The notes under the pieces are model-generated. The model saw nothing but the letters and a program-made list of their open reading frames with translations, had not been told where the DNA came from and searched no databases. Below, one piece after another: positions 20,458-43,573 of a DNA stretch of 64,000 nucleotides. The translations under genes were made by a program, and so were the position numbers. The number at the start of each line of letters is the position of its first letter. The first letter of the stretch is position 1. The stretch is from Escherichia coli (GTDB lineage: Bacteria > Pseudomonadota > Gammaproteobacteria > Enterobacterales > Enterobacteriaceae): the NCBI RefSeq assembly GCF_009931435.1, contig NZ_CP043414.1. The stretch is one strand, 5' to 3'.

Positions 20458-21078
20458 GTGGAAATTTACGAGAACGAAAACGACCAGGTTGAAGCGGTTA
20501 AACGCTTTTTTGCTGAAAATGGCAAAGCACTGGCTGTTGGGGTGATTTTGGGCGTTGGCGCATTGATTGGCTGGCGCTACTGGAACAGCCATCAGGTTGA
20601 TTCTACACGCTCCGCTTCTCTTGCCTATCAAAATGCGGTTACCGCAGTGAGCGAAGGCAAACCGGATAGCATCCCGGCGGCGGAAAAATTTGCTGCTGAA
20701 AATAAAAATACCTATGGTGCGCTGGCTTCTTTGGAACTTGCGCAGCAATTTGTTGACAAAAATGAACTAGAGAAAGCTGCCACCCAGTTACAACAGGGAT
20801 TGGCAGACACGAGCGATGAAAATCTCAAAGCCGTGATAAATCTGCGTCTTGCCCGCGTTCAGGTACAGCTCAAGCAGGCTGATGCCGCGCTGAAAACCCT
20901 CGATACCATCAAAGGTGAAGGGTGGGCTGCCATTGTTGCCGACCTGCGTGGCGAAGCATTGCTGAGCAAAGGTGATAAGCAAGGTGCGCGTAGTGCATGG
21001 GAAGCTGGCGTGAAAAGCGATGTTACCCCGGCACTGAGCGAAATGATGCAGATGAAAATTAATAATTTGTCCATCTGA
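20458..21078 (+). CDS. yfgM: YfgM (membrane-anchored TPR-like ancillary protein)
   Basis: 206-aa ORF with GTG start at 20458; N-terminal TM (ALAVGVILGVGALIGW); conserved position between hisS and bamB. Confidence 0.85.
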   Translation: MEIYENENDQVEAVKRFFAENGKALAVGVILGVGALIGWRYWNSHQVDSTRSASLAYQNAVTAVSEGKPDSIPAAEKFAAENKNTYGALASLELAQQFVDKNELEKAATQLQQGLADTSDENLKAVINLRLARVQVQLKQADAALKTLDTIKGEGWAAIVADLRGEALLSKGDKQGARSAWEAGVKSDVTPALSEMMQMKINNLSI

Positions 21079-21088
21079 GAGGGACCCG

Positions 21089-22267
21089 ATGCAATTGCGT
21101 AAATTACTGCTGCCAGGACTGCTTTCCGTTACCCTTTTAAGCGGCTGTTCGCTGTTTAACAGCGAAGAAGATGTGGTAAAGATGTCCCCATTGCCGACCG
21201 TTGAAAACCAGTTTACGCCGACCACGGCGTGGAGCACTTCCGTGGGTAGCGGCATTGGCAACTTCTATTCCAATCTTCATCCGGCACTGGCGGACAACGT
21301 TGTCTATGCAGCAGACCGCGCTGGTTTAGTAAAAGCGCTGAATGCGGATGATGGCAAAGAAATCTGGTCTGTCAGTCTGGCCGAGAAAGATGGCTGGTTC
21401 TCTAAAGAGCCTGCATTACTTTCTGGCGGCGTGACCGTGTCTGGCGGACATGTCTACATTGGTAGCGAAAAGGCGCAGGTTTACGCGCTGAATACCAGTG
21501 ATGGTACTGTGGCATGGCAGACTAAAGTCGCGGGTGAAGCGCTTTCTCGCCCGGTGGTCAGCGACGGTCTGGTGTTAATCCACACCAGTAATGGTCAGTT
21601 GCAAGCCCTGAACGAAGCTGACGGCGCTGTCAAATGGACAGTTAACCTCGATATGCCTTCACTCTCTTTGCGTGGCGAGTCTGCGCCAGCAACGGCTTTT
21701 GGTGCGGCCGTCGTGGGTGGCGATAATGGTCGCGTCAGCGCAGTGCTAATGGAACAGGGCCAGATGATTTGGCAGCAGCGTATTTCCCAGGCGACCGGTT
21801 CTACCGAAATTGACCGCCTGAGCGATGTTGACACGACTCCCGTCATTGTTAACGGCGTTGTTTTCGCGCTGGCCTATAATGGTAACCTGACGGCGCTTGA
21901 TCTGCGCAGCGGTCAGATTATGTGGAAGCGCGAACTGGGTTCGGTGAATGATTTCATCGTCGACGGCAACCGCATCTATCTGGTCGATCAAAATGACCGG
22001 GTGATGGCGTTGACCATTGATGGCGGCGTTACGCTGTGGACACAAAGCGATCTGCTGCATCGCCTGTTGACTTCTCCGGTGCTGTATAATGGCAACCTGG
22101 TGGTAGGTGACAGTGAAGGTTATCTGCACTGGATCAACGTCGAAGATGGTCGTTTCGTTGCCCAGCAAAAAGTTGATAGCTCCGGTTTCCAGACTGAACC
22201 GGTTGCCGCTGACGGCAAACTGCTGATCCAGGCAAAAGACGGGACTGTGTACTCTATTACACGTTAA
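21089..22267 (+). CDS. bamB: Outer-membrane protein assembly factor BamB (beta-propeller lipoprotein)
   Basis: 392-aa ORF; lipoprotein signal with lipobox LLSGCS; repeated PQQ-like blades. Confidence 0.9.
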   Translation: MQLRKLLLPGLLSVTLLSGCSLFNSEEDVVKMSPLPTVENQFTPTTAWSTSVGSGIGNFYSNLHPALADNVVYAADRAGLVKALNADDGKEIWSVSLAEKDGWFSKEPALLSGGVTVSGGHVYIGSEKAQVYALNTSDGTVAWQTKVAGEALSRPVVSDGLVLIHTSNGQLQALNEADGAVKWTVNLDMPSLSLRGESAPATAFGAAVVGGDNGRVSAVLMEQGQMIWQQRISQATGSTEIDRLSDVDTTPVIVNGVVFALAYNGNLTALDLRSGQIMWKRELGSVNDFIVDGNRIYLVDQNDRVMALTIDGGVTLWTQSDLLHRLLTSPVLYNGNLVVGDSEGYLHWINVEDGRFVAQQKVDSSGFQTEPVAADGKLLIQAKDGTVYSITR

Positions 22268-23919: not shown

Positions 23920-24135
23920 ATGGAACTCAACTGCCCAACCTGCCATAACCCTCTCGAACGCAACGGTGAAACTGCCCACTGTGCAACTTGTGCCAAAGAT
24001 TTCACCATTCAGGCGCTTTGTCCTGACTGCCATCAGCCATTACAGGTGTTAAAAGCTTGTGGTGCAGTAGATTATTTCTGCCAGCATGGGCACGGTTTAA
24101 TATCCAAAAAGCGCGTTGAATTTATTGTTGCTTAA
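23920..24135 (+). CDS. yfgJ: Small zinc-ribbon protein YfgJ
   Basis: 71-aa ORF with paired CxxC motifs (CPTCH...CATC, CPDCH...); conserved position after der. Confidence 0.8.
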   Translation: MELNCPTCHNPLERNGETAHCATCAKDFTIQALCPDCHQPLQVLKACGAVDYFCQHGHGLISKKRVEFIVA

Positions 24136-24326
24136 TATTATTTAAATATATGGTGTAATCATTTGTATTCATAATATAAATGATTGCATCCTATTTTATT
24201 TGTTGAAACGCAAATGTAAGTGAGCGAAATCACTGTGTTATAAATTTAAGATTATATTTAGTTTTCCTGGCGTGCCTTTCTGAATAATCTGGAATAGAAT
24301 ATTAGAGCTAATTTTAAGCATTATTA
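24136..24326. promoter_or_regulatory. AT-rich leader/promoter region of the sinH-like island (left island boundary)
   Basis: About 190 nt of strongly AT-rich sequence (ttaatattatttaaatatatggtg...) directly upstream of the first island gene; contrasts with GC-rich flanking core genes. Confidence 0.4.
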
Positions 24327-26519
24327 ATGTCACAGGGGATGTGCATGCTGCGATGGAAACGCTGTATTATGCTAACATTTATCTCTGGAGCTGCTTTTGC
24401 GGCTCCAGAGATAAATGTTGAGCATAAAGAATCGTTACCTGATTTAGGTAGTCAGGCCGCACAACAGGAAGAGCAAACTAACAAGGGTAAATCGCTAAAA
24501 GAGCGTGGTGCCGATTACGTCATTAACTCTGCCACGCAAGGGTTTGAAAACCTCACACCCGAGGCGCTGGAGTCCCAGGCCAGAAGCTATCTGCAAAGTC
24601 AAATTACCTCTACGACACAATCTTATATTGAGGATACACTCTCCCCCTACGGTAAGGTCCGAACGAATCTTTCTCTTGGTCAGGGCGGCGATCTGGATGG
24701 CAGTTCCATCGACTATTTTGTTCCCTGGTATGATAATCAAACTACTGTTTATTTCAGCCAATTTTCTGCACAACGAAAAGAAGATCGTACGATCGGGAAT
24801 ATTGGGCTTGGTGTAAGACATAATTTTGATAGATGGTTATTGGGTGGAAATATATTTTATGATTATGATTTTACCCGTGGGCATCGCCGTTTAGGTTTAG
24901 GTGCCGAAGCCTGGACTGATTATTTAAAATTCTCTGGCAACTATTATCATCCGCTTTCTGACTGGAAAGACTCCGAAGATTTCGATTTTTATGAGGAGCG
25001 TCCTGCGCGCGGTTGGGATATTCGCGCCGAAGCCTGGCTACCTGCTTACCCGCAGCTTGGCGGTAAAATCGTTTTCGAACAGTATTACGGTGATGAAGTC
25101 GCGCTTTTTGGCACCGATAATCTGGAGAAAGATCCCTTCGCCGTCACGCTGGGTGTGAAATACCAGCCCGTACCGCTCATTGCCGTAGGAACGGATTTCA
25201 AAGCCGGCACTGGCGATAATACCGATCTTTCTGTTAACGCAACGCTGAACTACCAGTTTGGCGTCTCGCTCAAAGACCAGCTTGATCCTGACAAAGTAAG
25301 CGCGGCTCACTCGCTCATGGGCAGCCGTCACGACTTTGTTGAACGTAACAACTTTATTGTTCTGGAATACAAAGAGAAAGATCCCCTCGATGTCACTTTG
25401 TGGCTGAAAGCTGATGCGACGAATGAACATCCCGAGTGCGTGATTAAAGATACGCCAGAAGCAGCCATCGGGCTGGAAAAATGTAAGTGGACCATTAACG
25501 CGCTCATTAATCATCATTACAAAATCGTTGCTGCCTCCTGGCAGGCGAAAAACAATGCTGCACGTACGCTGGTGATGCCGGTTATCAAAGAAAATACGCT
25601 TACCGAAGGGAACAACAATCACTGGAATCTGGTGCTGCCTGCCTGGCAGTACAGCTCTGATAAAGCCGACCAGGAAAAACTCAATACCTGGCGGGTACGC
25701 CTGGCGCTGGAAGATGAAAAAGGCAATCGGCAGAACTCCGGCGTGGTGGAAATTACCGTTCAGCAGGACCGTAAAATTGAGCTCATTGTTAACAACATCG
25801 CCAATGTACCGGATGAGAACAATCACAGCCACGAAGCCAGCGCGCAAGCGGATGGTGTAGATGGTGTCGTCATGGATCTCGACGTTACCGATAGCTTTGG
25901 CGACAACACTGACCGTAACGGTAATGTCTTGCCGCAGGATAATCTCAGCCCGCAGCTGTTTGATGCCAACGATAAAAAAGTGACGCTGACGAATAAACCC
26001 TGCACCACCGAAGTGCCGTGCGTTTTTATCGTCAAACAAGATAAAGAAAAGGGGACCGTTACGCTCTCCAGTACGTTGCCCGGCACTTTCCGCTGGAAGG
26101 CGAAAGCCGCCCCTTATGATGACAGTAACTATGTTGACGTAACGTTCCTGGGTTCTGACATCGGCGGGCTGAATGCTTTTATCTACCGCGTTGGTGCAGC
26201 TAAGCCCGTCAATCTTATCGGCAACAAAGAACCGTTGCCTCTCAATAGCCGCTATCGCTTTGTGCTGTGGCGCGACGCTAACAAAGACGGCGTGTTCCAG
26301 CTTTCTGAGAAGCTCACTGACGATGAGATGAAACAGTATGACTATCAGTGGGAATTCACGGGGCATAGCGTAAATGGCAATACCGGTGCGCAAACCAATA
26401 CCACGAACGTCGATATAGAGATCCCGGCAACCAACAAGGAAGCGGCAGCAAAGTTTAGTGCCCAGGTAACCGATGGCGTGCAGGGATACGGTTTGCAGGT
26501 CAATTACAGCAAGAAATAG
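24327..26519 (+). CDS. sinH: Intimin/invasin-family outer-membrane protein (inverse autotransporter), SinH-like
   Basis: 730-aa ORF; signal-like N-terminus (alternative start at 24345, MLRWKRCIMLTFISGAAFA); central inverse-autotransporter-type beta-barrel region; located between yfgJ and xseA as in the Salmonella CS54-type island (from memory). Confidence 0.7.
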   Translation: MSQGMCMLRWKRCIMLTFISGAAFAAPEINVEHKESLPDLGSQAAQQEEQTNKGKSLKERGADYVINSATQGFENLTPEALESQARSYLQSQITSTTQSYIEDTLSPYGKVRTNLSLGQGGDLDGSSIDYFVPWYDNQTTVYFSQFSAQRKEDRTIGNIGLGVRHNFDRWLLGGNIFYDYDFTRGHRRLGLGAEAWTDYLKFSGNYYHPLSDWKDSEDFDFYEERPARGWDIRAEAWLPAYPQLGGKIVFEQYYGDEVALFGTDNLEKDPFAVTLGVKYQPVPLIAVGTDFKAGTGDNTDLSVNATLNYQFGVSLKDQLDPDKVSAAHSLMGSRHDFVERNNFIVLEYKEKDPLDVTLWLKADATNEHPECVIKDTPEAAIGLEKCKWTINALINHHYKIVAASWQAKNNAARTLVMPVIKENTLTEGNNNHWNLVLPAWQYSSDKADQEKLNTWRVRLALEDEKGNRQNSGVVEITVQQDRKIELIVNNIANVPDENNHSHEASAQADGVDGVVMDLDVTDSFGDNTDRNGNVLPQDNLSPQLFDANDKKVTLTNKPCTTEVPCVFIVKQDKEKGTVTLSSTLPGTFRWKAKAAPYDDSNYVDVTFLGSDIGGLNAFIYRVGAAKPVNLIGNKEPLPLNSRYRFVLWRDANKDGVFQLSEKLTDDEMKQYDYQWEFTGHSVNGNTGAQTNTTNVDIEIPATNKEAAAKFSAQVTDGVQGYGLQVNYSKK

Positions 26520-26574: not shown

Positions 26575-27567
26575 ATGAAACCTGATATGAAACGTGGCCT
26601 GACAAAAGTCGCGCTCGCGTTGATGCTGGCTGGATACTGTGCCGTACCAGCCGCTATGGCGGAAGATGCCGCCTGGGTCGCCAGTGGAGCGACCGCTGAA
26701 TTCGAAGGGACTATACCCTGGCTCTATCGCGAAGGGGGGAATGCCACGATTAACTCGGAAGATGCGGATCACATTAAAGTGACGTCTGATGGTAAAGGGA
26801 CCCGCCCTGCAGGTAGCGAGACGGATAAACGCCTTTACTCAGGGGATACCATCACGCTGGGATGGGATATCGGCGATACCGAAGGGGATGTTGATGATGG
26901 TCCCGCAGGCATTGATGCGAAAACGACGGCCACTATCAAATGGTACAGCTACAGCAATAATGCGGGTGGCGATAAAACGGAGCTGACCGCAGCGGCAGGC
27001 AAGACGAGTTATAAACTCACTGATGACGATCGTGGGCGTTATATCGGTGTTGAAATCCAGCCCATCACCCAGACCGGTAATCCCTTCGAGGGAACGTCGC
27101 TGACTCTGCTGGATATTTCAACGGCCAGCGGTGGCGGCAGCGATACGGACAATGTCGATCCCGGCCCGGTTGTGAACCAGAATCTGAAAGTTGCCATCTT
27201 CGAGAAAGGCACCACTACCAACCTTATCGGTGGTAACACGGCCATTGCGCTTAATAAAACGTATGTGGCCAAACTGTACTCGGATGAAAACCAGAACGAT
27301 AAATACGACGCAGGTACGGATATGGACGTTACCGCTAACTATGACTTTGCATGGGTCTTTAACGGTAACAGTAAACAACTTGCTGCGGCGGGCGGTATTG
27401 CTAATGCCAGCTTCGATAACAATGACATTGTTATCCCGCAAACTAACGAAGAAGCAAGAACCAGCCTTAATGGTAGTGACCGTAATGGTAAGAGTGGTCT
27501 TGCGATCCCGGCAAACGGCGACGGCGTTCAGGGCTATACGCTGTCTATCATTTACAAACACCACTAA
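26575..27567 (+). CDS. sinI: Secreted SinI-like protein, homologous to the SinH C-terminal module
   Basis: ORF 26569-27567; ATG at 26575 preceded by aaggag RBS; signal peptide MKPDMKRGLTKVALALMLAGYCAVPAAMA; C-terminal DGVQGYTLSIIYKHH parallels SinH C-terminal DGVQGYGLQVNYSKK. Confidence 0.65.
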   Translation: MKPDMKRGLTKVALALMLAGYCAVPAAMAEDAAWVASGATAEFEGTIPWLYREGGNATINSEDADHIKVTSDGKGTRPAGSETDKRLYSGDTITLGWDIGDTEGDVDDGPAGIDAKTTATIKWYSYSNNAGGDKTELTAAAGKTSYKLTDDDRGRYIGVEIQPITQTGNPFEGTSLTLLDISTASGGGSDTDNVDPGPVVNQNLKVAIFEKGTTTNLIGGNTAIALNKTYVAKLYSDENQNDKYDAGTDMDVTANYDFAWVFNGNSKQLAAAGGIANASFDNNDIVIPQTNEEARTSLNGSDRNGKSGLAIPANGDGVQGYTLSIIYKHH

Positions 27568-27576
27568 TGCGCACAA

Positions 27577-27606
27577 CAGCATTCCCATATGGGAATGCTG
27601 TTTTCC
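27577..27606 (+). terminator. Hairpin plus T-tract after sinI (cagcattcccatatgggaatgctg then ttttcc)
   Basis: Perfect palindrome 10 nt after sinI stop, followed by a T-run; a second long palindrome follows at 27608-27642. Confidence 0.5.
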
Positions 27607-27676
27607 GCCTGTTTTGCTTAGCGACGCGTTAAGCAAAACAGGTTGATGTTTTGTTTATCATGCTGGAGTTTTCTAC

Positions 27677-30600
27677 ATGTCGGTATGTCTGAAACCAGGG
27701 AAAATCATTATGCTTCTGGGCATGTTGGCAGCTTTTATGCTGTCTGACTTTGCACGGGCAGGGGCGGAATGGCAGACATATCCTGATTCTACAGGCGAGT
27801 TTAACGGAACCGTTCCTTTTGCCGACAGCGCCAGCGTACCCGTCTATCAGGGCAGTGTTCAGCTTAATCCTGCTGAATCTCATGATGTCGGGTTTTCTGC
27901 TAAACCGAATGAATTTAGTGTTGACGATGACGCTGCTAACCTGATTGTTGCTAATCCTCAGGACAATGAAGGCGACCAGTTTTCCACACCACCTGCGCTG
28001 CGCTGGGAAAATCAAACACCCCCTACCGTCAGCCTGGTGTGGGCCGATGCCGCCACGCCCGATGTGCCCCTTAACCCACAACCCATTGCTAACCGTAGCT
28101 TTTGCGCTCAGGGGCTCGCCGGACGCTCGCTGGTGGCCTGGCCGCAGATTGATGCGCAGCAAACCCTCCCACTGCTCTACCTGCTGACCTCGACCGGGTA
28201 TCCCTATGCGGGGACGGTGGCGCTGGTGGACCAGAAAGTGACCCTGAACATCGCGCCCGCGCAGGGCGATTTAATCTCGGTGAGCGCCAGCGGTTATAAC
28301 GAAACGATCGCGGCGGCAAAAACCACCGTTGGCGACACCATCACGCTCACCGTCACCACTAAAGATTGTCAGGGCAACGTCGCGGGTAATATTCCGTTTA
28401 TTATCAAACGTAAAGATGCTGAAAATCGCCAGGGGGCAGTGAATAATAGTGCGCCAGTGGTACTGGATAGCACCGAGTTAACGACGACGGCTACCGAATA
28501 CCATGGCACCTCTGATTCCAACGGCACGGCCACCATCACGGTGAGCCAACCGAACGGCCCTGGTGTCAAAACGCCACTGGTGGTCAGCATTTCCGGCATT
28601 GCGCAAACCAGCGAAACCGCAGTGATTTTTACCGTACTCACCAGCCCGGACGTGGCGCAGGCTACGATGTGGGGCCATATGGCGGAGACGGTAGAAGCCC
28701 ACGGTTACACCTTCAGTCGACCAAAGCTGGCGGCAGAAGTCAGCAATGAAAGCGCCACGGTTGTCGATCATAACGAAACCTGGTCCACCTTCACCTGGAG
28801 CGGCGCAGATAGCCACTGCACCGTGCTGCCCGGCATGCGCCACTTCGGCGCGCTGGCGACCGTTATCCCCACGTCGGTGCAGACAGCCCTTGGCTGGCCG
28901 ATGCAGGGGGATTATTACTGGTCATCGCTGGCGGGCACCACCGGGCAGCACCATGCGGCGGATGTCTCTAACCGTAGTGAAACGCAAAAGCCGGATAGCA
29001 CCCCGTTTCTTGTGAGCTGCGTGGATAAACCCGCGCCTGATGTCGAACCGAAAATCGTCCTTACGCCCGAAAACTATGATGATACGGCACAGGCGATGAA
29101 ATCGCAGGTGGGCGAAGACGCCACGATGCGTCTGACGATCACCGACAATAAAAATAACGATCAACCACTGGCGTATTACTACTTCTCGCTGCATCTGGAT
29201 GACGGCGTTAACCGCAAAAATCAAACCGATTCCGCCTGGGAAGCCCATCCGGTGCAGATTACTGGTGGTTCGAATTTACAACAGGTTGATGCTCACACCT
29301 ATGAAGGCATGACCGATGTCAACGGTCAGGCTTCGCTAACCCTGAGTCAGCCCGACGGCGCAGGCGTGAAAACCCATATCACGGCGAAAATGCGCAGCAA
29401 TTTTACGGCTACAGATGCCAAAGACGTGATTTTTACTGTGATCACCAGCCCGGACAGCGACAAGGCGCGGATGTGGGGCCATATGCGCGGCATTGTTGTA
29501 TCTGGCAGTCTGTTCAAACGCCCAGTGCTGGCGGATGAAACTGAGCATGAACTGGGATCGGTGCGGGAAAATGACGAAGACTGGGCGCTGTTCGATCAAG
29601 ACACCAGTATGCAGGCTGAATGCGGCGTCGGCCATACGCCACGTCAGAGTGGGCTGGAAAGCCTGTTTTCAGCCCATCCCGGTAACGCGATTGGCACTGA
29701 GTATGGCTGGCCCACCGCCCAACAGAGCTACTTAAGCGCGGTGGAGCAAGCCACGCATTCATCGGTGAATCTGGGGAACGGAAACGTCGACAGCTACTCC
29801 GGCTTTAAGCAGAATTACCTCTCCTGTTCGGGCAATGAGATGGTAGCGAAGGTTGAAGTCAGCACCGATCACGATATCACCCCTGGCAGCAAAGCGCAGG
29901 CCAAAGTAGGTGACACCATCGTGATGACCGTGCGTACGATTAACGCGCTCAATAATACCCCGGTACCCTTTACTGCATTCACCATTACCAAAGGCATGGG
30001 GTATAACCGAGCGGGGCTGGTGAGCGGGTTTGATGACCCGAGCAGCGGCGCAATCTCGATGAATGGCACGCAATACGGCACATCACAGCCGTCGATGGTC
30101 TACACAGGTACGACAGATGCACAAGGCGTGGCAACGGTCGAAATAGAGCAACCCCAGGGGGTGGGGTTAAGAACCGTGCTGAGCATTACGCCGGTCAATT
30201 CCCATCTACCAAATGCCATTAATTACAATGTTATTTTTACCACCCCAACCAGCCCGGATGTTAGTGGGGCGCAGATGTGGGGCCATATGGATGAAACGAT
30301 TACCGTTGATTCATTAACCTTTACCCGGCCTAAGCTGGCAGCAGAAATCGCCAGTCCGGATGGCACACTAACGGAAAAAAACGAAGTCTGGGCGCGCGTT
30401 AGCCAGGCCAGTACGGCCATTACCAGTAAAGGCGGTTGCGGAACCAATATGCTGCCGCGCCGCTCCCAGCTCAGTGCGCTTTATGACGCTAATAACGGTA
30501 ATGCGGTGCAAGCCACACACGGCTGGCCGACGCAGCGTCAGCCCTACTGGAGCAGTTCCCCCGCGGATTTAACGCCGCACAATTACACCATTGCCCTGGA

Positions 30601-33600
30601 TAACGGCGCACAGGCCATCGGCGGCGATACGCCGGTTTACGTCAGTTGCCTGACGACGGCGAACAAACCTGCCAGCAGCATTACGCTGGATGTGGTTGAT
30701 AACGCACAGTGGGCTGCCGGAAATAACGCGGCGAAGCTGAAAAAAGGCGAAACGCTACGGGTTAAGGTAACGGTAAAAGATGCGCAGGGTAATCCGCTCA
30801 CGGATATGCCATTTAAACTGAGTCGCGGAGACGGTTATACCCGCACGGGCGAAAAACATATTGCCGGTAGTGGCGATGCGCTGGTGGCACCGGTGGTGAT
30901 TAACAGTGGGCTGGCGGATGAAACGACGTTGAACGACACCGCGGGATTTTATACTGCCATGACCGGTAGCGACGGCAGCAAAATCCTCAATATTACCCGC
31001 CCGGATACTCACGGCACCAAAACGGCGCTGACGGCGACGTTGTATTCCGATCCAACAAAAAAAGACAGCCTGGATACAATCTTTACTGTGGTCACCAGCC
31101 CGGATAGTAGCAAAGCGAAAATGTGGGGGCATATGCCGGAAACGGTGACGGCTGCGGACGGTACGGTATTTAAACGCCCGCTGTTGTTGAAGGAACTGGC
31201 CTATCAGACTGGGCGAACATCGACGTCTGAAGACAATGAAAACTGGGCGTTGTTTAACATTAATTATGCGAGTTCTTCCACGACGTATAGTGGCTGTGGA
31301 ACCAACTATATTCCGACTCAAGCCGGTCTGACGTCACTGTTTGCTAATAATGCGGGCAACACCATGAAAACCGTGCAGGGCTGGCCGGTGGCAACACGCT
31401 ATTTGTCCAACACGTCCGACAACGGCAGCATGGAGCAGCGTAACTACAAGGCGGTAGATCTCAGCAATGGCACGAGTGCGGCAGTGTCATCAACGGCGCT
31501 GCAACTGCTGACCTGCCAGACCACGCCGGTAACCACGGTGGGCCAAATTCTGCTGGAAGCGGCAGATCCGGCGACGCTGGATACCACCTATAACGTGGTA
31601 AAAGCGAAAAAAGGCGAAGAATCCGTGGTGCGCGTCACCACCAAAGATACGCAAGGCAACCTGGTGGGCAATACGGCATTTATCCTGACGCGTGCCAACA
31701 GCGTGAGTCGGGCTAACGCATCAGCAACCGCGAGCGTGGGCGCGCTGACGGTGACGGATGCTTGGGGAAATACGCGAAATAATTTCCAGTCGACGAGTGA
31801 AACGATTTACGGCGTGACTGGTGCAGACGGGTCAACGACATTTACCCTGAAACAGGATAACAGTACCGGGTTAAGAACCGATCTCACGGCAAAACTGGAT
31901 ACGTCCAGCAGCGTCAAGGCGACGCTACCGGTGGTCTTTACTGTCGTGACCAGCCCGGATTCGCCAAAAGCGAATTTTTGGGGACATATGGCCGAAACGG
32001 TGATGGCCTCCGACGGTACAATCTATAAACGACCACTGTTGTTGAAAGAGCTGAGTAACACCAGTGGTCGAAATTCTACGGCTGAAAACGGTGAAGATTG
32101 GGCAAGATTCACCTGGACTCAGTCGGCTGACACCAGCATGAATGGGTGTGGTACAGATTATATGCCGACGCTGGATGGACTGAAGTCTTTGTATGACGCC
32201 AATAGCGGTAATGTGATGAGTACGGTGCAGGGATGGCCGGTAAAAACGACCTATCTCACCAATACCCCGAGTGATACGCAAACAGGGAGCCGTTACTACA
32301 ATGTGGTGCAACTGAATACTGGTGCAGTCTCACAAATCTCGACGAACACAGTCGTGCAACAAACCTGCCGCACAACGCCGTTGACGGCTGCTAGCCAGAT
32401 TACGCTGGAGGCCTCAGACCCCTCGCAATTTGTCAGCATTGACAGTACGCTTAGCGCGATCAAAGTGCAGAAAGGCGATAGCGTGTCGATCCGCATTTCG
32501 ACTAAAGATGCACAGGGGAATTTAGTCGGCAATACGCCGTTTGCCCTGAAACACGCTAACCCGGTCAATCGCCAAAATGTGGCGTCAACATCGCAGAAAG
32601 TGTCGGTCACGACTGCGTCGGGTACGACGGTGGATACCACTGCATCGACCATTCTGTATGGCGTGACCGGGCCAGACGGAACCACCACGATGACACTCCG
32701 ACAGGATGTGTCTACTGGACTCAAAACCGACTTTTATGCTCTGTTGAACGATACCGGCGTGTCGTCGAACACCTTGCCAGTGATCTTCACCGTCGTCACC
32801 AGCCCGGATACACCGCTGGCGGCCAACTGGGGGCATATGGCGGAAACCTTTACCAGCAGCAAGGGCGTCACCTTCAAACGGCCTTTCCTCAAAGCTGAAC
32901 TTTCTGGTGGTACGGCGGTAACGACCAATAATGAAGTCTGGTCGCGCCTGACAGCAACGGAGAAAACGGATGCCAGCAAGGCTGGGTGTGATGAGAGTTA
33001 TCAACCGCTGATGACTGACATGCAGGGGTTGTATGCGGATTACCCTAACAACCAGTTGGGCACGGTGCTCGGCTTGCCGACTTCCGCCGGGTATATGTGG
33101 GCCTACGACATGATGACGGTTTCTGGCAGCAGCTGGAGCAACCAGGCATATTCGCTCGTTAATGGTCAGACAGTTCAGGCATCGTCCAGTTATACGGCGG
33201 TAGTGATGTGCCTGGTGGAACCGCATACCGTTCCGGCGATGATAGAGATCACTTCAACAGCACAGGATGCGGCAAAAACGGTCAGCAATGGTGGTCGACC
33301 GAGCGCCGTAGCGAAGAAAGGTGAGACGATTCCGCTGACGGTGACCGTACGTGATAGCACCGGGAATCCGGTACCCTACGCCGACTTTACCCTCACGCGT
33401 GGAACGACGCTGGATCGCTCGAAAGCAACCGTTAACTCGAGTGCGGACGATCTTACCGTGAAGTCATTGATACCCGCGAACAGCGACGCTGGGCTGACGG
33501 CAAATGGGGCAAAAGTGCTCAGAACAACGGGCAGTGATGGCACAGCCACCTTTGAAGTGAGCCAGAATGCCACGACAGGTCTGGCGACACCGATAACCGT

Positions 33601-35761
33601 CACGCTGGCGCGCGATACAACCAAAACCGCCACGCTGGATGTTATCTACACGGTGATAACCAGCCCGGACTCACCGAGCGCGAAATTCTGGGGATACATG
33701 CCGGACACCTTTACCAGTTCGGCAGGCGTCACCTTCAGACGACCGCTCCTGAAAGCCGAAGCGACTTCAGGGTCATCGATTAGCACTAACGGCAATGGTG
33801 AAGTGTGGTCGTATATGAGCAACGTTCAAAATTTAACATCGACAGATTGTCCGCTGGAGAATCAACCGCGCAGTAATGAATTGTTGGATTTGTATAATGA
33901 TCATCCCAACGGCGCGATAATGACTGACCTGGGGCTGCCGATATATGCAGGCAAGTGGTGGGCTTATGATATGGTCATGCCGGATTTATATACGTGGCAG
34001 TATCAGACTGTCAGCCTGAGCGCAGGAGATATCGCGAAGAGCTCGGCAAACAACGCGCTGATGCTTTGCCTGGCGAAGCCGCATCCGGCAGGCGTCAGCG
34101 TAATGTTGACGTCATCCGCAATGGATAACGCCAGAACCCTCAGTAATGGCGGGCGACCCAGCGCGTCAGTGAAAAAAGGTAACCCACTGCCAATTGTGGT
34201 GACGGTCAAAGATCGTGATGGCAACCCGCTGGCGGGAGAGGCCGTTACGCTCAGGCGTGGTTCAGCGATGAGCCGTTCAGGAGCAGGAGTGGGCACGCCG
34301 GCAAATGCAATGACGTTGACAGAGTTGACACCTGTGTCGGCGGAGTTTTCTCTGGCCGCACACGATACGCAATGGCAAGGTTTCACCGGCAGTGATGGTA
34401 CGGCCACTTTCAATGTTGAACAGCCTGAGACCATCGGCCTGGCCATTCCGTTCACCGCTATACTGGCGCGAGATGTCGCAACTACCAGCGTCCTTGATAC
34501 GATCTTTACCGTCGTCACCAGCCCGGATTCCGCAATGGCGACCTACTGGGGCCATATGCCGGATACGGTAACGGCGGAAAACGGCGTGGTCTTTGAACGG
34601 CCTAAATTGTTGAAAGAGCTGCCGTCGAGCGCCGGAGTCAGTCAGGTGACGGATAACAATGAAGTGTGGCCGTTGTTTAAGGCAACGCAAAGGGAAGATA
34701 GCAGCCTCAGTCCTTGTGAAGCGGCACGTCGGCCATTGAGCGATGATTTATTATCGCTCTACGCGCGCTATCCGGGGAACACGCTGACGACTCAAATCGG
34801 CTGGTCTACGAAGTATGCATGGTGGGCACTGGATAACAAGCAGGGGAATGCCCTGGTTGTCAGTCTGAATAATGGTTTTGAGTCGTCGACGGCGAGTACG
34901 GGGTATCAGGGATGTCTGGTCAATCCCCGCGCGACCGTCTCCAGCGTCACGCTGACATCGACGGTGATAGATGCCACTACGCAGGCGGCGAAGGTAAAAA
35001 AAGGTGAAGCCGCGCCCGTCGTTGTTACCGTAAAAGACAGCGCCGGGAAGCCGGTACCGAATGTCGCTTTCACCTTAAAACGTGGTGATGCCGTGCCGCG
35101 TAACAGCGGGGCGACGTTGTATGGTGATGTTGCGGCGATGGATGATATGACGGTACAACCTGCCAGCGGGACGGTGGTAACGCTGGCTGACAGTGGGAAT
35201 ACGATCGACGGTGTGACAGGGGCGGACGGTACGGCAAGTTTTGCCGTTCGTCAGGATAATACGCCAGGATATAAAACGCCGTTGACGGTGACGCTGACGG
35301 ATAACGCCACAATAACGGCGACGCTGGATACGATTTTCACCGTGCCGACCAGCCCGAATGTCGCCACGGCGTATTTCTGGGGGCATATGGCGGATACCGC
35401 CACCGTAAGTGGCAAGACGTTACATCGCCCGCTATTGCAATCAGAGTTGCCGTCAGGGGCTACAGCGGCAGTAGCGCCAACGGTGAATAATGAAATCTGG
35501 GCGCTGGCACATGTGATCGATGCTCAAAAATGGGATATTGCAAAGCAGTGCGGTGACTTTAGTAGAGCACCGAGCTATACCGATTTACAGTCGTTACATA
35601 GCAGCTTTAGCGCGCTGGGATGGCCATCATCGATAAGCTTCCCCTATTTCTCTACCGATCGGGCCGGTTCGTTCTATTGTGGCATGGATGAAGGGGCGGG
35701 GACACAAAACTGCGGTATTCAGGCATCCAGTACTGCGGGGTTTGCAACCTGTTTCCAGTAG
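27677..35761 (+). CDS. ratA: Giant RatA/RatB-like repetitive surface or secreted protein (Big_1-type Ig-like domains)
   Basis: 2694-aa uninterrupted ORF; N-terminal signal ([17 protein letters not shown]); nine tandem repeats each with a Big_1-like strand (e.g. [13 protein letters not shown]), a TSPD motif and a WGHM motif; last gene of island, convergent with xseA. Confidence 0.65.
28640..35400 (+). repeat. Nine tandem, divergent coding repeats (period 804-861 nt) inside the ratA-like gene
   Basis: The tgg-ggN-cat/tac-atg (WGHM/WGYM) motif recurs at 28670, 29474, 30278, 31124, 31979, 32828, 33689, 34547, 35378; each is preceded by accagcccgga (TSPD). Confidence 0.85.
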
Positions 35762-35816
35762 TCTTAACGGGTCTGTAAATGGGGGCCAAGATGTAAATAA
35801 GATTCGCAATACGTCA

Positions 35817-37214
<1,398 letters not shown>

Positions 37215-38880: not shown

Positions 38881-40458
38881 ATGACGGAAAACATTCATAA
38901 GCATCGCATCCTCATTCTGGACTTCGGTTCTCAGTACACCCAACTGGTTGCGCGCCGCGTGCGTGAACTGGGTGTTTACTGCGAACTGTGGGCGTGGGAT
39001 GTGACAGAAGCACAAATTCGTGACTTCAATCCAAGCGGCATTATTCTTTCCGGCGGCCCGGAAAGCACCACCGAAGAAAACAGCCCGCGTGCGCCGCAGT
39101 ATGTCTTTGAAGCAGGCGTACCGGTATTCGGCGTTTGCTATGGTATGCAGACCATGGCAATGCAGTTGGGTGGTCATGTTGAAGCCTCTAACGAACGTGA
39201 ATTTGGCTATGCGCAGGTTGAAGTCGTAAACGACAGCGCACTGGTTCGCGGTATCGAAGATGCTCTGACAGCAGACGGTAAACCTCTGCTCGATGTCTGG
39301 ATGAGCCACGGCGATAAAGTTACCGCTATCCCGTCCGACTTCATCACCGTAGCCAGCACCGAAAGCTGCCCGTTCGCCATCATGGCAAATGAAGAAAAAC
39401 GCTTCTATGGCGTACAGTTCCACCCGGAAGTGACTCATACCCGCCAGGGGATGCGCATGCTGGAGCGTTTTGTGCGTGATATCTGCCAGTGTGAAGCCCT
39501 GTGGACGCCAGCGAAAATTATCGACGATGCAGTAGCCCGTATCCGCGAGCAGGTAGGCGACGATAAAGTGATCCTCGGCCTCTCTGGTGGCGTGGATTCC
39601 TCCGTGACTGCAATGCTGCTGCACCGCGCAATCGGCAAAAACCTGACTTGCGTATTCGTTGACAACGGCCTGCTGCGTCTCAACGAAGCAGAGCAGGTTC
39701 TGGATATGTTTGGCGATCACTTTGGTCTGAACATTGTTCACGTTCCGGCAGAAGATCGCTTCTTGTCAGCGCTGGCTGGTGAAAACGATCCGGAAGCAAA
39801 ACGTAAAATCATCGGTCGCGTTTTCGTTGAAGTATTCGATGAAGAAGCGCTGAAACTGGAAGATGTGAAGTGGCTGGCGCAGGGTACTATCTACCCTGAT
39901 GTTATCGAATCTGCCGCGTCTGCAACCGGTAAAGCTCACGTCATCAAATCTCACCACAACGTGGGCGGCCTGCCGAAAGAGATGAAGATGGGCCTGGTTG
40001 AACCGCTGAAAGAGCTGTTCAAAGACGAAGTGCGTAAAATTGGTCTGGAGCTGGGCCTGCCGTACGACATGCTGTACCGTCACCCGTTCCCGGGACCAGG
40101 GCTTGGCGTTCGTGTGCTGGGCGAAGTGAAGAAAGAGTACTGCGACCTGCTGCGCCGTGCTGATGCCATCTTCATTGAAGAACTGCGTAAAGCGGACCTG
40201 TACGACAAAGTTAGCCAGGCGTTTACCGTGTTCCTGCCGGTACGTTCTGTTGGCGTAATGGGCGATGGTCGTAAATACGACTGGGTTGTGTCTCTGCGTG
40301 CCGTCGAAACCATCGACTTTATGACCGCACACTGGGCACATCTGCCGTACGATTTCCTTGGTCGCGTTTCCAACCGCATTATCAATGAAGTGAACGGTAT
40401 TTCCCGCGTGGTGTATGACATCAGCGGCAAGCCGCCAGCGACTATTGAGTGGGAGTAG
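38881..40458 (+). CDS. guaA: GMP synthase (glutamine-hydrolysing)
   Basis: 525-aa ORF; GATase motif GVCYGMQ; PP-loop SGGVDSSV; C-terminal ...PPATIEWE. Confidence 0.97.
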
Positions 40459-40503
40459 GACTGGCTATAAATAGTAAATTAAGCCTTTCCAACTAACTTT
40501 AAT

Positions 40504-40536
40504 GCCAGTCAGTTTGCTGACTGGCATTTTTTATTG
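40504..40536 (+). terminator. guaA rho-independent terminator (gccagtcagtttgctgactggc then attttttatt)
   Basis: Perfect hairpin plus T-tract 45 nt after guaA stop. Confidence 0.7.
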
Positions 40537-40604
40537 GTTTTTCATTGAGTTTATGACTTCTATTTTTAAGGCCGTAACTCTATAACATCGGCTATGGCCT
40601 AAAG

Positions 40605-40632
40605 ATAAAAGCCATTACCAACAAAATGGCGG
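40605..40632 (-). terminator. Probable minus-strand terminator downstream of the membrane receiver-like gene
   Basis: Minus-strand reading gccattttgttggtaatggc followed by ttttatcttt; lies about 120 nt downstream of the ORF ending at 40753. Confidence 0.45.
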
Positions 40633-40752
40633 TATTCCAAAACAGTCTAGCCGGAAGTGCTTACAATGAGATCGATCAAATCGACAAATGAGATACTGGC
40701 CGTTGTGAGCGCCCGGCAACCGTAGCCGTAGGGGGCGAATTTAATGGCTTTG

Positions 40753-41529
40753 TTATGAGCCATTGGTAATCGCACCCATGACAATTTGAAAGAGTTCTTC
40801 TGCTCGATTAGTGGAGCCAATTGCACCTCTTTCTCTCGCCATTCTCTTGTGCTCTGGTAGATCTGAGGACGCATAGATCATAAAAGGAGTTTTGTCTCCC
40901 ATTGCGCGTAATCTTTCTAGTAAGACATAACCTTCTTGCGCCCCTTCTTTGCGATCCATATCCGAAATAATAGCTGCAAACTTATTTGTTTTTAACAATT
41001 CCAAGGCTTCGTCAGTTGAAAGAGCTAAAGCGAACTCTATTCCCTGTGCCTCAAATGCCTGTCTTTCGTAAACATTATTTTCTGGTCGATCATCCACCCA
41101 TAAAATACGATTTCGCCATTTTTCATGCTTACTCTGCCGTTTTGCATTGGATACAACGTTGACGATTTTTTGCAGTTGGCTTTCAGTGACCCCTGCACTA
41201 TTTTCAGGCTGTTTTGCTGTGGCGGCGGTCAATGATGCTGCTGTAGCTATTTGCGCTCTTAAAAAATTATTTTCATCTTTGAAATCTGACGGCCCGTAAA
41301 GCTTATTATGATGTTTCGCAACAAGCCAGAGAAAGCCAAGAAACACAATGACAGGAAAGAAAACCATGAAATAAATAAGGGGAGCTATATGCTCTGATAA
41401 GCCATTACCAAAGCCAACGACGAAAGAGGCAAATCCATAAACGAGAACAATAAAGAGTGCAATGATACCAAGAGGGCTTTTGGTAAATCCTATTGCAGTT
41501 TCAGCAAATTTCTCTGGTTCCATATCCAT
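40753..41529 (-). CDS. Hypothetical membrane protein: two N-terminal TM helices plus a C-terminal CheY-like receiver-like domain (accessory gene, not in K-12 layout)
   Basis: 258-aa ORF; TM segments GIIALFIVLVYGFASFVVGF and IAPLIYFMVFFPVIVFLGFLWLV; C-terminal REC-like pattern ILWVDDRPENN / AAIISDMDR / TPFMIYASSD / GAIGSTNRAEEL with N/R where the conserved REC Lys is expected; AT-rich codon usage. Confidence 0.7.
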   Translation of the reverse strand: MDMEPEKFAETAIGFTKSPLGIIALFIVLVYGFASFVVGFGNGLSEHIAPLIYFMVFFPVIVFLGFLWLVAKHHNKLYGPSDFKDENNFLRAQIATAASLTAATAKQPENSAGVTESQLQKIVNVVSNAKRQSKHEKWRNRILWVDDRPENNVYERQAFEAQGIEFALALSTDEALELLKTNKFAAIISDMDRKEGAQEGYVLLERLRAMGDKTPFMIYASSDLPEHKRMARERGAIGSTNRAEELFQIVMGAITNGS

Positions 41530-41616
41530 CCTCAGTATTGCTCATAACACAGTTAAGTTGTATTAGATCAGACCTGATCTGACAATTACCGGCTATTTAT
41601 AAAGGTATCTGTCAGA

Positions 41617-42012
41617 TTACATCTGGCTTAAGTTTTTCTCATCCCAGATGTGCTTTCCATCAAGTAACGTTTCCATCGGCGTTCGGCCACTGCACATTTT
41701 TCCCTGATGGGTTCGCTCATTATTATAGTGAACCCGCCATTCATCAAGAACCGATTGTAATGCTTCAAGATCATCATATAACTTTTTGCGGAACGTCACC
41801 TGATAAAACTCGTTCAGTATCGTTTTATGGAACTGCTCGCAGATACTATTGGTCTTAGATGACATTGCTTTCGTTTTCGTATGCTCAATATCATTTATCG
41901 CCAGATAAAGCTGGTAATCATGCTGCTCCACTTTACCGCAATCTCTTGGTGTATTGAGAGGCGGGTTATAAAATAAATACTGATACCATGAGGGCGGATC
42001 AATCGTGGTCAT
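41617..42012 (-). pseudogene. Truncated DDE (rve-type) transposase, C-terminal fragment only: IS remnant
   Basis: 131-aa ORF with integrase-core C-terminal signatures NSICEQFHKTILNEF and WRVHYNNERTHQG...GRTP; upstream DD catalytic region and DNA-binding N-terminus are absent. Confidence 0.6.
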
Positions 42013-42027
42013 AGTATCAGGTCATTC

Positions 42028-43542
42028 TCATGGGTTTATTGCGTCCCTGAAGATGACGTCGCTGACCATCTCTCCTCCAAGAAAATCGATCAACATATTC
42101 GAGTTTTCAAGGTCTTCTCTGGTCAATGCCCCGATTGCTTGTCCAACTACTACCTCCCAAGGTTTTTTACACTCAACAATAGCACAGACGAGTTGGCGGA
42201 TTTTCTTGATCTTCTTGTGACGCAATCGGTCGTTCGATTCCATTAGTTCTGCAATCAACGCTATGTCGGAGTGTGTTTGATTATCCTCAACCCATTTTTT
42301 GGCTGCGTCTACAAATTCCACCCATGTAACATTCATTACTGCAAGGCATGAATCAGTCAAAAGAACATTTTCGATAGCGTAGCATCGTAAGCGATAGCGT
42401 TTAAGAGGTAGGCGATGTTCAAGCGACTTGTTGATTACACCATCGCCATCACGAAGGGAAAAGGCGATTGGATTGTCATAGAGTGTACTAAGGAGGTCTA
42501 CGCAAAAATCCTCAAGTTGACTCTGTTGATCTACGCTACCTGCTAGTACGGGAAAGATTTTTATTCGACCCTGTGATGTTCTGGCCGCTTGTTGCCAGAC
42601 TCGTTCGTCGTCCTCTCCTTCCAAAATTAATGCAGCGTCTTCGCTAAGAGAAAGCGATAGGGGGTGCCCGAAGAATGGTGCAATCTTTCGAAGTTCATCG
42701 CTGGCCGGTATCAATGAGATTTCATTTACTGCAAAGCTCTTCGTGCCGATTGATACATATGGGGAGGCGGCAAGAGAACAGACGAGCGGGGAACTATGGG
42801 TGGATAAGCATATGGCAATACTGTTCGCGTGTGTTCTAAATTCGTCGAGCATACTGATTATCAGCTTGCCCAGTCTAGCTTGGAGGTCGGGGTGCAGATG
42901 TACATCAGGCTCATCGAGGAGGAGTACGTTGAATTTCTCCGGATCTATTGTGTCGAAGAAATAGATGATTTCCGCGGCTAATGCAACCGCTTCCGATTCA
43001 CCGCTACTGATTTGGGCCGGATCAATAATCTGACCATCTACAAGTGATCGAAACTCATAATCGACATTACCCATCTCGAGCGAAATGTTAGTGAGAAGCT
43101 GATTAATTTTACTTAATCGGTCTGTCTGAAAGTTTCGCGTTAGATCAGTTCGAATTTCCGGAGTATTGGCAAGTCGACGTAAGTAAAGCGTCTCGGCCTC
43201 GCGAAATAGCATAGCCGATGCAGCTTTGAAGTTGCTTGCCTGATTAACTGCCCGAGTGTGCCTCAGCCATTCGGGGTTGTCGCTCATATTTGTGAGGACG
43301 GTGCCATCACGCTTGAACGATCCTGCTCGCTCTGGACTTACATACCGGACATAAAATTGCTGCTTGTTCTGGCTGATTGTTTGTTCGATATCGCGAAGGA
43401 AACGACTTTTTCCCGCACCGTTTCGGCCCATAATTATGTTGATGTTGTTTAAGCCGTAAAGTCGGCCAATTTGGCTAGATAACTCGCTTACTTTCAAGAT
43501 TGTAACTCCATTTCTTGTTGCCACATACGGTAACAAATACAC
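42028..43542 (-). CDS. OLD-family-like ATPase-nuclease (ABC-type ATPase fused to TOPRIM-like domain); accessory gene
   Basis: 504-aa ORF with GTG start at 43542; Walker A GRNGAGKS (43405-43428), ABC-signature-like ISSGES, Walker B/D-loop VLLLDEPDVHLHP, H-loop STHS; C-terminal TOPRIM-like LILEGEDDE (~42610-42630) and RDGDG (~42440-42454). Confidence 0.75.
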   Translation of the reverse strand: MYLLPYVATRNGVTILKVSELSSQIGRLYGLNNINIIMGRNGAGKSRFLRDIEQTISQNKQQFYVRYVSPERAGSFKRDGTVLTNMSDNPEWLRHTRAVNQASNFKAASAMLFREAETLYLRRLANTPEIRTDLTRNFQTDRLSKINQLLTNISLEMGNVDYEFRSLVDGQIIDPAQISSGESEAVALAAEIIYFFDTIDPEKFNVLLLDEPDVHLHPDLQARLGKLIISMLDEFRTHANSIAICLSTHSSPLVCSLAASPYVSIGTKSFAVNEISLIPASDELRKIAPFFGHPLSLSLSEDAALILEGEDDERVWQQAARTSQGRIKIFPVLAGSVDQQSQLEDFCVDLLSTLYDNPIAFSLRDGDGVINKSLEHRLPLKRYRLRCYAIENVLLTDSCLAVMNVTWVEFVDAAKKWVEDNQTHSDIALIAELMESNDRLRHKKIKKIRQLVCAIVECKKPWEVVVGQAIGALTREDLENSNMLIDFLGGEMVSDVIFRDAINP

Positions 43543-43573
43543 TAACTGAATAGGTGCGTTGATGCCTCATTTT

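Follow-up and report, generated by a model that had tools for sequence, protein, structure and literature searches.

The 64,000-nucleotide stretch of an Escherichia coli genome analyzed here (contig NZ_CP043414.1; hereafter, the window) carries a giant repetitive ORF, and raises the question of what the encoded protein is and how a polypeptide of this size, devoid of its own beta-barrel, could reach the cell surface. On balance, we favor the reading that the protein, RatA, is a multivalent surface adhesin, assisted by SinH via a SinI-like N-terminal module and diversified by gain or loss of whole units together with mosaic recombination.

Identification of the giant ORF as a ratA-like gene

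The ORF at 27677..35761 (plus strand) starts with ATG and comprises 2694 codons plus a stop, and its translation revealed no internal stop. A Shine-Dalgarno-like GGAG (27665..27668, plus strand), read directly from the sequence, lies 8 nt upstream of the ATG. The product scored 5410 bits against NCBIfam NF011844 "RatA-like protein" (cut-off 3870), an equivalog model of which positions 1–2683 of 2683 were aligned to residues 3–2694, and was 100% identical to RefSeq WP_105288174.1. The equivalog cut-offs for Salmonella RatA (NF011843; 2015 vs 3700) and RatB (NF011842; 2238 vs 4079) were not reached, the single-stretch alignment of both models being limited to the N-terminal ~1450 residues. We identify the ORF as the gene for the E. 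coli RatA-like protein, which occupies third place in the sinH-sinI-ratA ("ila") cluster, a relative of the Salmonella CS54 island; since RefSeq already contains this gene with annotation and name, the giant ORF pointed out by the first-pass annotation was correct but not new.

That annotation had described a single giant frame of nine tandem, diverged units, and one uninterrupted frame of 2694 aa with nine units was indeed observed. The WGHM-encoding word TGGGGNCATATG occurs eight times in the window, all within the ratA ORF, against a chance expectation of 0.02, and the motif copy that completes the nine, at 33689, is TGGGGATACATG (WGYM). The positions of the motif (28670, 29474, 30278, 31124, 31979, 32828, 33689, 34547, and 35378) and its spacings (804, 804, 846, 855, 849, 861, 858, and 831 nt, equivalent to 268–287 aa) were exactly reproduced. 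TSPD was likewise present upstream of each copy, but at 30 nt before TGG instead of the 33 nt given earlier; it is encoded by ACCAGCCCGGA in eight of the nine copies and replaced with TSPN (ACCAGCCCGAA) in the ninth. All the peptides quoted at that stage, including the Cys-containing CGTDYMPT, were found in the translation. The proposed divergence at the DNA level was also borne out, the units sharing 40–53% identity as codon-aligned DNA and 26–42% as protein, and the longest exact DNA word common to two units being 21 nt. Tandem Repeats Finder, whose longest period (500 nt) is shorter than a unit, reported no array of units. As for the concern that the repeat count might be an assembly artefact, 10 independent complete-genome records were shown to align to the 11.5-kb region with 89–100% identity, and nine of them span the full region in a single piece, so that the nine-unit count is not such an artefact.

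Domain architecture and fold of the repeat units

Pfam searches identified nine BIg21 (E 5.6e-203) and nine InvE_AD (E 2.4e-281) domains, equivalent to DUF824 and DUF823, with the InvE_AD (PF05689) score reaching 918.9 bits (cut-off 32), and no other Pfam family above threshold. The strand noted in each unit as Big_1-like is thus Ig-like as proposed, but belongs to BIg21, Big_1 being below threshold.

All the units lie on the plus strand. Unit 1 (aa 189–456; 28241..29044) consists of a BIg21 Ig-like domain (aa 219–321) and an InvE_AD lectin-like adhesion domain, and its alignment with PDB 5N40 (aa 167–427, E 2.7e-30) takes in the TSPD...WGxM motif. Units 2 (aa 457–724; 29045..29848), 3 (aa 725–1006; 29849..30694), and 4 (aa 1007–1291; 30695..31549) were delimited by Pfam, unit comparison, and positional orthology. 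Unit 5 (aa 1292–1574; 31550..32398), with the best InvE_AD stretch at aa 1427–1564, is the first of a middle block (units 5–8), and is followed by unit 6 (aa 1575–1861; 32399..33259), defined by Pfam as well as unit and allele comparison, and unit 7 (aa 1862–2147; 33260..34117), supported by unit and allele comparison, in which the motif scan revealed WGYM in place of WGHM. Unit 8 (aa 2148–2424; 34118..34948) and the terminal unit 9 (aa 2425–2694; 34949..35758) were modeled together; the latter is characterized, from translation, model, and orthologue comparison, by TSPN, additional cysteines, and a conserved C-terminal ...GFATCFQ.

The AlphaFold2 model of units 8–9 (aa 2140–2694, pLDDT 90.6) displayed the pair of an Ig-like and an accessory domain that had been anticipated. 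Its top Foldseek match was 5N40 (E 2e-18, TM 0.59 normalised to target), followed by invasin 1CWV (E 1.5e-7), and in the sequence and Foldseek searches the only solved relative was 5N40, InvE of Yersinia, whose identity and InvE_AD character were taken from its PDB title and from the Pfam description. In every unit, a BIg21 Ig-like domain is joined to an InvE_AD domain, which is lectin-like and contains two conserved cysteines. The terminal Ig-like and adhesion pair of Yersinia pseudotuberculosis InvE, which forms its receptor-binding tip, matches every RatA unit, including the TSPD...WGxM junction, and invasin (1CWV) and intimin are more distant relatives; InvE, however, has an N-terminal barrel and only one tip module, whereas RatA has no barrel and nine tandem tip modules. 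In other words, the Ig-like plus terminal lectin-like adhesion domain of an inverse-autotransporter passenger is present nine times in RatA, while Pfam detected no IAT_beta, that is, no inverse-autotransporter barrel, in RatA itself. Since every unit has its own lectin-like adhesion domain, RatA strings together nine invasin-type tip modules; what was first read as a long modular adhesin stalk is therefore a modular adhesin of Ig-like and accessory domains, but not a mere stalk.

Distribution and diversification of the ratA locus

Of 5426 complete E. coli genomes, 1739 contain the RatA-like gene, which in the window lies between der and xseA. The allele of the window is rare (nine of the 5426 genomes match its first 2 kb at 95% identity or more), and the commonest allele class shares about 65% protein identity with it. 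Nothing essential distinguishes it from the RatA-like protein of E. coli and E. albertii (NF011844; the "ila" cluster of extraintestinal pathogenic E. coli), which has the same nine-unit architecture and the same der-xseA site. RatA and RatB of Salmonella CS54 also share the N-terminal domain, the BIg21 and InvE_AD units, and the sinH/sinI and xseA neighborhood, but CS54 contains two rat genes plus shdA and other unit numbers, whereas E. coli contains one rat gene.

Across full-length homologues, the unit number ranged from 6 to 11, nine being the commonest. Units 1–4 kept positional orthology across genera and the terminal unit was retained in most orthologues whatever the unit number, while the middle block of units 5–8 was variable in number and the most divergent between alleles. 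These profiles suggest that gain or loss of whole units in the middle block and mosaic recombination between alleles diversify the length and surface of RatA.

The island that carries the gene is recognised as virulence-associated in extraintestinal pathogenic E. coli. Its SinH is being pursued as a vaccine antigen (PMC9937491), and a genome paper of 2026 states, with reference to earlier work, that urinary-tract infection is attenuated when genes of the cluster are deleted (PMC12928451). No other product of this island is as large as RatA, which has nine potential binding domains.

The RatA N-terminus and a module common to SinI

The first-pass annotation had seen neither a beta-barrel nor a secretion domain at either end of the protein. 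The former holds, but inspection of the translation revealed a Sec-type signal peptide (aa 1–28; 27677..27760, plus strand) with K6, K9, a 13-residue hydrophobic core, and A-R-A, after which cleavage is predicted, before GAEW; the same layout was observed in all orthologues. It is followed by a family-specific, conserved N-terminal beta-rich domain (aa 29–188; 27761..28240, plus strand), the first part of which (aa 29–104; 27761..27988, plus strand), with W-Q...T-G-E-F-N-G-T-V-P at the mature start and D-N-E-G-D at its end, is a module common to SinI. Although conserved, the first 14 residues of the mature protein were unstructured in the monomer model (pLDDT below 50).

Upstream of ratA, sinH (24345..26519, plus strand) encodes an intimin-like inverse autotransporter, composed of a beta-barrel at the N-terminus and an Ig-like passenger (Pfam IAT_beta E 1.2e-105; NCBIfam inverse_SinH 1474 bits vs cut-off 999; also RefSeq), and sinI (26575..27567, plus strand; NCBIfam partner_SinI 377 bits vs cut-off 165) an autotransporter-associated protein with a signal peptide. 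The first ~80 mature residues of SinI are homologous to the RatA N-terminus and the last ~115 to the SinH C-terminus, which matched SinI residues 213–331, and both SinH and SinI end in ...DGVQGYxLxxxY.

The module common to Rat and SinI proteins, ~75 aa in length, starts with (LKxG)xWQ-x5-T-x2-[IF]-x-GT-x-P and ends with DTEGD. A profile of 22 aa derived exclusively from Rat proteins matched 12 SinI proteins just after the signal peptide (E 2e-7 to 4e-3), with no other ORF below E 0.1 among 5022, and hhalign aligned 79 columns of the RatA and SinI N-termini (P 3.8e-5). When 1.84 billion representative proteins were searched with the module, matches with E below about 3e-9 were exclusively Rat-like or SinI-like, full-length or fragmentary, and the module started at about residue 25–40 in the full-length proteins; the 66 classified library matches were Rat-like, SinI-like, or fragments, the exceptions being a few weak matches at internal positions. 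A search with the N-terminal 218 aa of RatA returned short Rat fragments only and no new architecture. We found no description of the module in the literature examined, and it is possibly unreported. It is a candidate recognition or docking element.

Within a locus, SinI and Rat carry the same motif variant (the EF type or the LKxGxWQ...I type), although this concordance may reflect just one or a few evolutionary events. Gene conversion between the 5' regions of sinI and ratA was considered as the source of the common motif and rejected, because the two regions have only 11–20-nt patches of DNA in common, so that no recent conversion has taken place.

Covarying hairpins between sinI and ratA

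The sequence spanning 27565–27680 was predicted to fold with a dG of -50.9 kcal/mol (z -7.85). Hairpin 1 (27575..27602, plus strand), located after sinI, has a 12-bp stem followed by TTTTCC, is kept with compensatory changes in 14 loci, and looks like an intrinsic terminator. Hairpin 2 (27604..27646, plus strand), in the ratA leader, comprises the invariant core TTTGCTTAGC...GTTAAGCAAA, a covarying outer stem, and then GTTGA; 97.4% of its cells were paired as compared to 37–53% in slid controls, and compensatory double changes were observed in 11 of 27 pairs. Its candidate roles are as an attenuator, an RNA stabiliser, or a regulator site. Rfam returned only sub-threshold chance matches to microRNA families for the spacer, and a sigma-70-like promoter scan gave no excess over shuffled sequence and none in the spacer. 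As the terminator-like hairpin lies between sinI and ratA, ratA is perhaps not expressed in step with sinHI, and the conserved twin hairpin, possibly unreported, probably sets the ratA:sinHI expression ratio. Together with the signal peptide and the SinI-common module, and with the conserved core (units 1–4 and unit 9) as opposed to the variable middle, the covarying twin hairpin offers a handle for experiments.

Proposed route of RatA to the cell surface

RatA is made with a cleavable Sec signal peptide, followed by the family-specific beta-rich domain and the nine modules; in the mechanism that we propose, it would be a long, multivalent, beads-on-a-string surface adhesin. As RatA has no barrel of its own, the outer membrane would be crossed, or RatA held there, with the help of the co-encoded SinH, a candidate translocator or anchor, and the module common to RatA and SinI would be the element recognised by SinH or SinI. 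The suggestion of the first-pass annotation that export may depend on the SinH-like protein gained support as probable from the neighborhood: the SinH barrel gene and the SinI gene lie directly upstream of rat, on the same strand, in 18 of 18 other-species loci with enough upstream DNA. This set represents Escherichia, Citrobacter, Pseudocitrobacter, Superficieibacter, and Leminorella, and its N-terminal identity falls as low as 50%.

SinH-dependent export of RatA is inferred by analogy with ZirT/ZirS of Salmonella, in which secretion of ZirS was experimentally found to depend on the inverse autotransporter ZirT and Sec (PMC2270342). In the ZirT/ZirS/ZirU system, too, the barrel gene comes first and is followed by genes for barrel-less, Sec-dependent Ig-like proteins, and the partner is similar to the passenger that the barrel protein carries (PMC2270342, PMC4943183); RatA is likewise barrel-less, Sec-signal-bearing, Ig-like, and encoded downstream of an inverse autotransporter, but its 2694 aa compare with 276 aa for ZirS. 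Rat-like proteins have been proposed as inverse-autotransporter substrates (Heinz et al. 2016; PMC4943183), and SinH/IatB was reported on the cell surface (PMC6714894). In the literature examined, we found no report of RatA being secreted, surface-exposed, adhesive, or SinH-dependent. The 12-stranded inverse-autotransporter barrel is filled by its own linker, so that a 280-kDa partner containing nine disulfide-capable domains would be mechanically hard to pass, a problem already raised in PMC4943183.

The logic resembles that of type Vb two-partner secretion (TpsA/TpsB), with a large Sec-exported adhesin, a conserved N-terminal recognition domain, and an adjoining outer-membrane barrel gene. 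RatA nevertheless has neither a TPS domain nor a beta-helix, its partner is an inverse autotransporter instead of an Omp85/POTRA protein, and the genes are arranged in another order, so that it does not belong to TpsA. A type I-secreted giant adhesin of the SiiE/BapA/LapA type was also considered and rejected, given the N-terminal signal peptide and the flanking genes der, a small zinc-ribbon gene, sinH, sinI, xseA, and guaB. Tentatively, the Rat/SinI module could be a dedicated recognition or docking signal of an inverse-autotransporter two-partner system, the counterpart of the TPS domain, with SinI as an adaptor having a cargo-like N-terminus and a transporter-passenger-like C-terminus; we regard this specific role as possible but somewhat less than evenly likely. 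If true, it would become directly testable how Rat and ZirS-type partners reach the surface, a question of long standing.

A competing model, which we consider rather unlikely, is that RatA is not threaded through SinH but docks non-covalently, for example by strand complementation, through its N-terminal peptide on the surface-exposed C-terminal domain of SinH or SinI, the latter serving as an adaptor in a SinH-SinI-RatA fibre. Co-encoded proteins were suggested to extend the inverse-autotransporter passenger (Tsai et al. 2010; PMC3008723), and the literally hybrid SinI, the conserved but disordered RatA N-terminal peptide, and the RatA C-terminus, which lacks a SinH/SinI-type domain and would therefore cap the chain, are consistent with such an arrangement. 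However, it leaves unexplained how SinI and RatA first cross the outer membrane, and no class-specific column co-varying with the N-terminal motif type was found in the SinH/SinI C-terminal domains, the putative acceptor, leaving the donor/acceptor idea without support from co-variation and also counting against the reading that we favor.

SinH-independent export, by a type II system, vesicles, or lysis, for example, with the gene order reflecting only co-regulation or common ancestry of Ig-like adhesin genes, appears improbable. It would accord with the terminator-like hairpin that sets ratA apart from sinI, with a passage in a review citing Shea 2022 that reports co-transcription for sinH and sinI only (PMC12525524), and with biofilm formation by IatB/SinH in the absence of the downstream gene (PMC6714894); against it stand the strict sinH-sinI-rat adjacency in every informative locus of several genera, the sharing of the RatA N-terminal module with SinI only, and the lack of other secretion genes in the island between der and xseA.

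Finally, although many database homologues are truncated or frameshifted and, among the related loci, one rat gene is frameshifted and another locus has a split sinH, the readings of the ratA ORF as an artefact of assembly, a pseudogene in decay, or an RTX-like giant adhesin secreted by a type I system can be practically discarded in the face of its Sec signal peptide, its BIg21 and InvE_AD content, flanks devoid of annotated ABC transporter or membrane-fusion genes, the positional orthology of the units at 50–99% identity across alleles, and the intact nine-unit ORF in complete genomes of independent origin, among them that of an ST131 strain.

Repeat ORF and its identity

The giant ORF that the first-pass annotation had placed at 27677–35761 was found to be intact on the plus strand, encoding 2694 amino acids. 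Its recurring motif TGGGGNCATATG was detected eight times in the 64-kb window, always inside this ratA-like ORF and in a single frame, with a chance expectation of 0.02, and the ninth copy, at 33689, was shown to read WGYM. All nine copies (28670, 29474, 30278, 31124, 31979, 32828, 33689, 34547, and 35378) lay where they had been reported, and the spacings of 804, 804, 846, 855, 849, 861, 858, and 831 nt were reproduced exactly. The TSPD said to precede each copy by about 33 nt was indeed present, although it starts 30 nt upstream and is replaced by TSPN in the final copy. The nine-copy family was also recovered by an independent repeat search, and independent complete genomes agreed on nine units. 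As had been noted, the units are diverged, with 26–42% identity in protein and 40–53% in DNA, and the longest exact DNA word in common did not exceed 21 nt. The window itself belongs to the E. coli chromosome, 11.5 kb of it being 100% identical to strain 2020CK-00188. The original observation was thus exact, and its interpretation essentially right.

The protein gave a full-length match to the NCBIfam family NF011844, "RatA-like protein" (5410 bits vs. a cut-off of 3870), and did not reach the NCBIfam equivalog cut-offs for Salmonella RatA and RatB. In Pfam, the protein contains nine copies each of BIg21 (formerly DUF824) and of the InvE_AD "adhesion" domain (formerly DUF823). The Ig-like character proposed for the units was borne out by BIg21; the Big_1 assignment fell below the Pfam threshold. 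RefSeq labels the product "adhesion domain-containing protein" (WP_105288174.1). The gene sits 3′ of sinH (24345–26519, plus strand), encoding an inverse autotransporter, and of a SinI-family gene (26575–27567, plus strand), with der and xseA as flanks. In the literature, sinH, sinI, and ratA are named the "ila" cluster, which is related to the Salmonella CS54 island (PMC12928451, PMC12525524). The ratA-like gene is accordingly already known and annotated.

Fold of the repeat unit

The sole solved sequence relative was 5N40, the Yersinia pseudotuberculosis adhesin InvE, which matched RatA residues 167–427 with an E-value of 2.7e-30 over an aligned stretch containing TSPDSAQASMWGNM. In an AlphaFold2 model of units 8–9 (pLDDT 90.6), a beta-sandwich was followed by an alpha/beta domain, reached by the final long strand via TSPD, and the top Foldseek matches of this model were again 5N40 (E 2e-18) and invasin 1CWV (E 1.5e-7). 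The adhesion domain of each unit carries two conserved cysteines. Because the 5N40 sequence match, the model, and the structural matches all agree, each unit corresponds to the Ig plus adhesion-domain tip of an invasin-type protein, and RatA contains this tip nine times.

Distribution and mosaic alleles

Of 5426 complete E. coli genomes, 1739 carry a ratA-like gene, in every case on the chromosome, and it is intact in an ST131 genome. Most full-length homologues carry nine units, eight- and eleven-unit forms also occur naturally, and many copies are truncated. When a single genome of each species was scanned, 21 related loci were detected in Escherichia, Citrobacter, Pseudocitrobacter, Superficieibacter, and Leminorella, whose rat genes have 6–10 units. 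Across the genera, positional orthology was retained by units 1–4 and the terminal unit, and the middle units differ in number; whole-unit deletions and duplications likewise cluster there. RatA alleles were shown to be mosaics with segment-wise jumps in identity, as seen in units 5–8 (31550–34948) against the alleles P0004, P0002, P0041, P0059, and P0114; P0004, for instance, is 98–100% identical but drops to 78–88% in units 4–6. The greatest divergence among alleles was observed in the distal units.

Locus decay is exemplified by E. coli E69 (L017, 5874–8861), in which the sinH frame is split between two ORFs ~730 nt apart, possibly through an insertion, and by E. coli SCPM-O-B-8794 (L021, 10001–16425), in which the rat gene is frameshifted after ~250 aa. 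In Leminorella grimontii, the 10-unit rat gene is followed directly by another rat-like gene (L014, 19015–20982) whose N-terminal module is the same, the locus stopping before the gene end; this arrangement resembles the Salmonella ratA/ratB pair.

Export route of RatA

Neither end of the protein had been credited with a secretion feature. The C-terminus, a conserved ...GFATCFQ, indeed lacks a barrel, but the N-terminus carries a typical Sec signal peptide with K6, K9, a hydrophobic core, and A-R-A ahead of GAEW. Residues 29–188, which are 45–92% identical across the family, were predicted with good confidence (pLDDT 85.6) to fold into a beta-rich domain.

Every related locus with upstream DNA has a SinH barrel gene and a SinI gene immediately 5′ of the rat gene and in the same orientation. 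In Salmonella ZirT/ZirS, secretion of a Sec-dependent Ig-like partner requires an inverse autotransporter (PMC2270342), and Heinz et al. put forward a ZirT/ZirS-like route for Rat-like proteins (PMC4943183). On the basis of this strict gene order, the precedent, and that proposal, RatA would most likely depend on SinH for export or anchoring. The literature searched yielded no experiment on RatA, and the interest left in RatA lies in this unproven mechanism, for which the SinI/Rat N-terminal module and a conserved twin hairpin described below are new, testable leads.

A similar motif directly follows the signal peptide in SinI and Rat proteins, reading NLKxGxWQ-x5-TGxIxGTxP in most loci; in the class to which the window belongs, SinI has DAAWVASGATAEFEGTIPW and RatA its own counterpart. 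When a 22-aa profile was derived from Rat proteins alone, it hit 12 SinI proteins (E 2e-7 to 4e-3) in the corresponding place, and no other ORF among 5022 six-frame ORFs scored below E 0.1; the window's own SinI scored poorly. Profile–profile comparison of SinI and Rat aligned 79 columns, up to a common DTEGD (P 3.8e-5, probability 71%). Among 1.84 billion representative proteins, the joint profile had 66 matches. Those with E < ~3e-9 were all Rat-like, SinI-like, or fragments of these, and full-length proteins matched from about residue 25–40 onwards.

The mature N-terminal ~80 aa of SinI are similar to the RatA N-terminus (ratA 27761–27988), and its C-terminal ~115 residues are homologous to the C-terminus of SinH (26190–26519, the 3′ end of the gene), both proteins ending ...DGVQGYxLxxxY. 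SinI is thus a hybrid, Rat-like at its head and SinH-like at its tail. Of the two motif variants (EF type and LKxGxWQ type), SinI and Rat of any one locus carry the same one; the DNA of the loci bore no sign of recent gene conversion between sinI and ratA. These features point either to a recognition signal that SinI and Rat have in common or to a chain docked head to tail, and a search for co-variation in support of docking found none. In mature RatA, residues 1–14 are conserved yet lack structure in the model, as would be expected of a binding peptide.

sinI–ratA junction

The 109-nt spacer between sinI and ratA (27568–27676) was predicted to fold as a pair of strong hairpins (dG −50.9 kcal/mol, z −7.85). 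The first (27575–27602) is terminator-like, with a T-run after the stem, and the second (27604–27646) has the invariant palindromic core TTTGCTTAGC...GTTAAGCAAA; GGAG lies 8 nt before the ratA ATG. The twin hairpin was kept in 14 loci of several genera, with 97.4% of cells paired vs. 37–53% with slid partners, and compensatory double changes were observed in 11 of 27 pairs, a number that never exceeded three in the slid controls. The spacer hairpins had no match in Rfam.

Composition and neighbourhood

Within this one island, the G+C content of sinH (0.45, 24001–26000) is markedly lower than that of ratA (0.54–0.57, 28001–36000), and the AT skew of ratA is strongly positive (0.12–0.18). Two core genes at 20458–22267, yfgM (ancillary SecYEG subunit) and bamB (barrel assembly), lie a short way upstream of the island, a placement that probably reflects a chance insertion site and not a functional link. 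Downstream of guaA, the region 40001–48000 shows low G+C (0.43–0.47) and negative AT skew; in an annotated twin locus, its counterpart opens with yfgI, yfgH, yfgG, and pdeF, the annotation considered here reaching the equivalent of about 45500.
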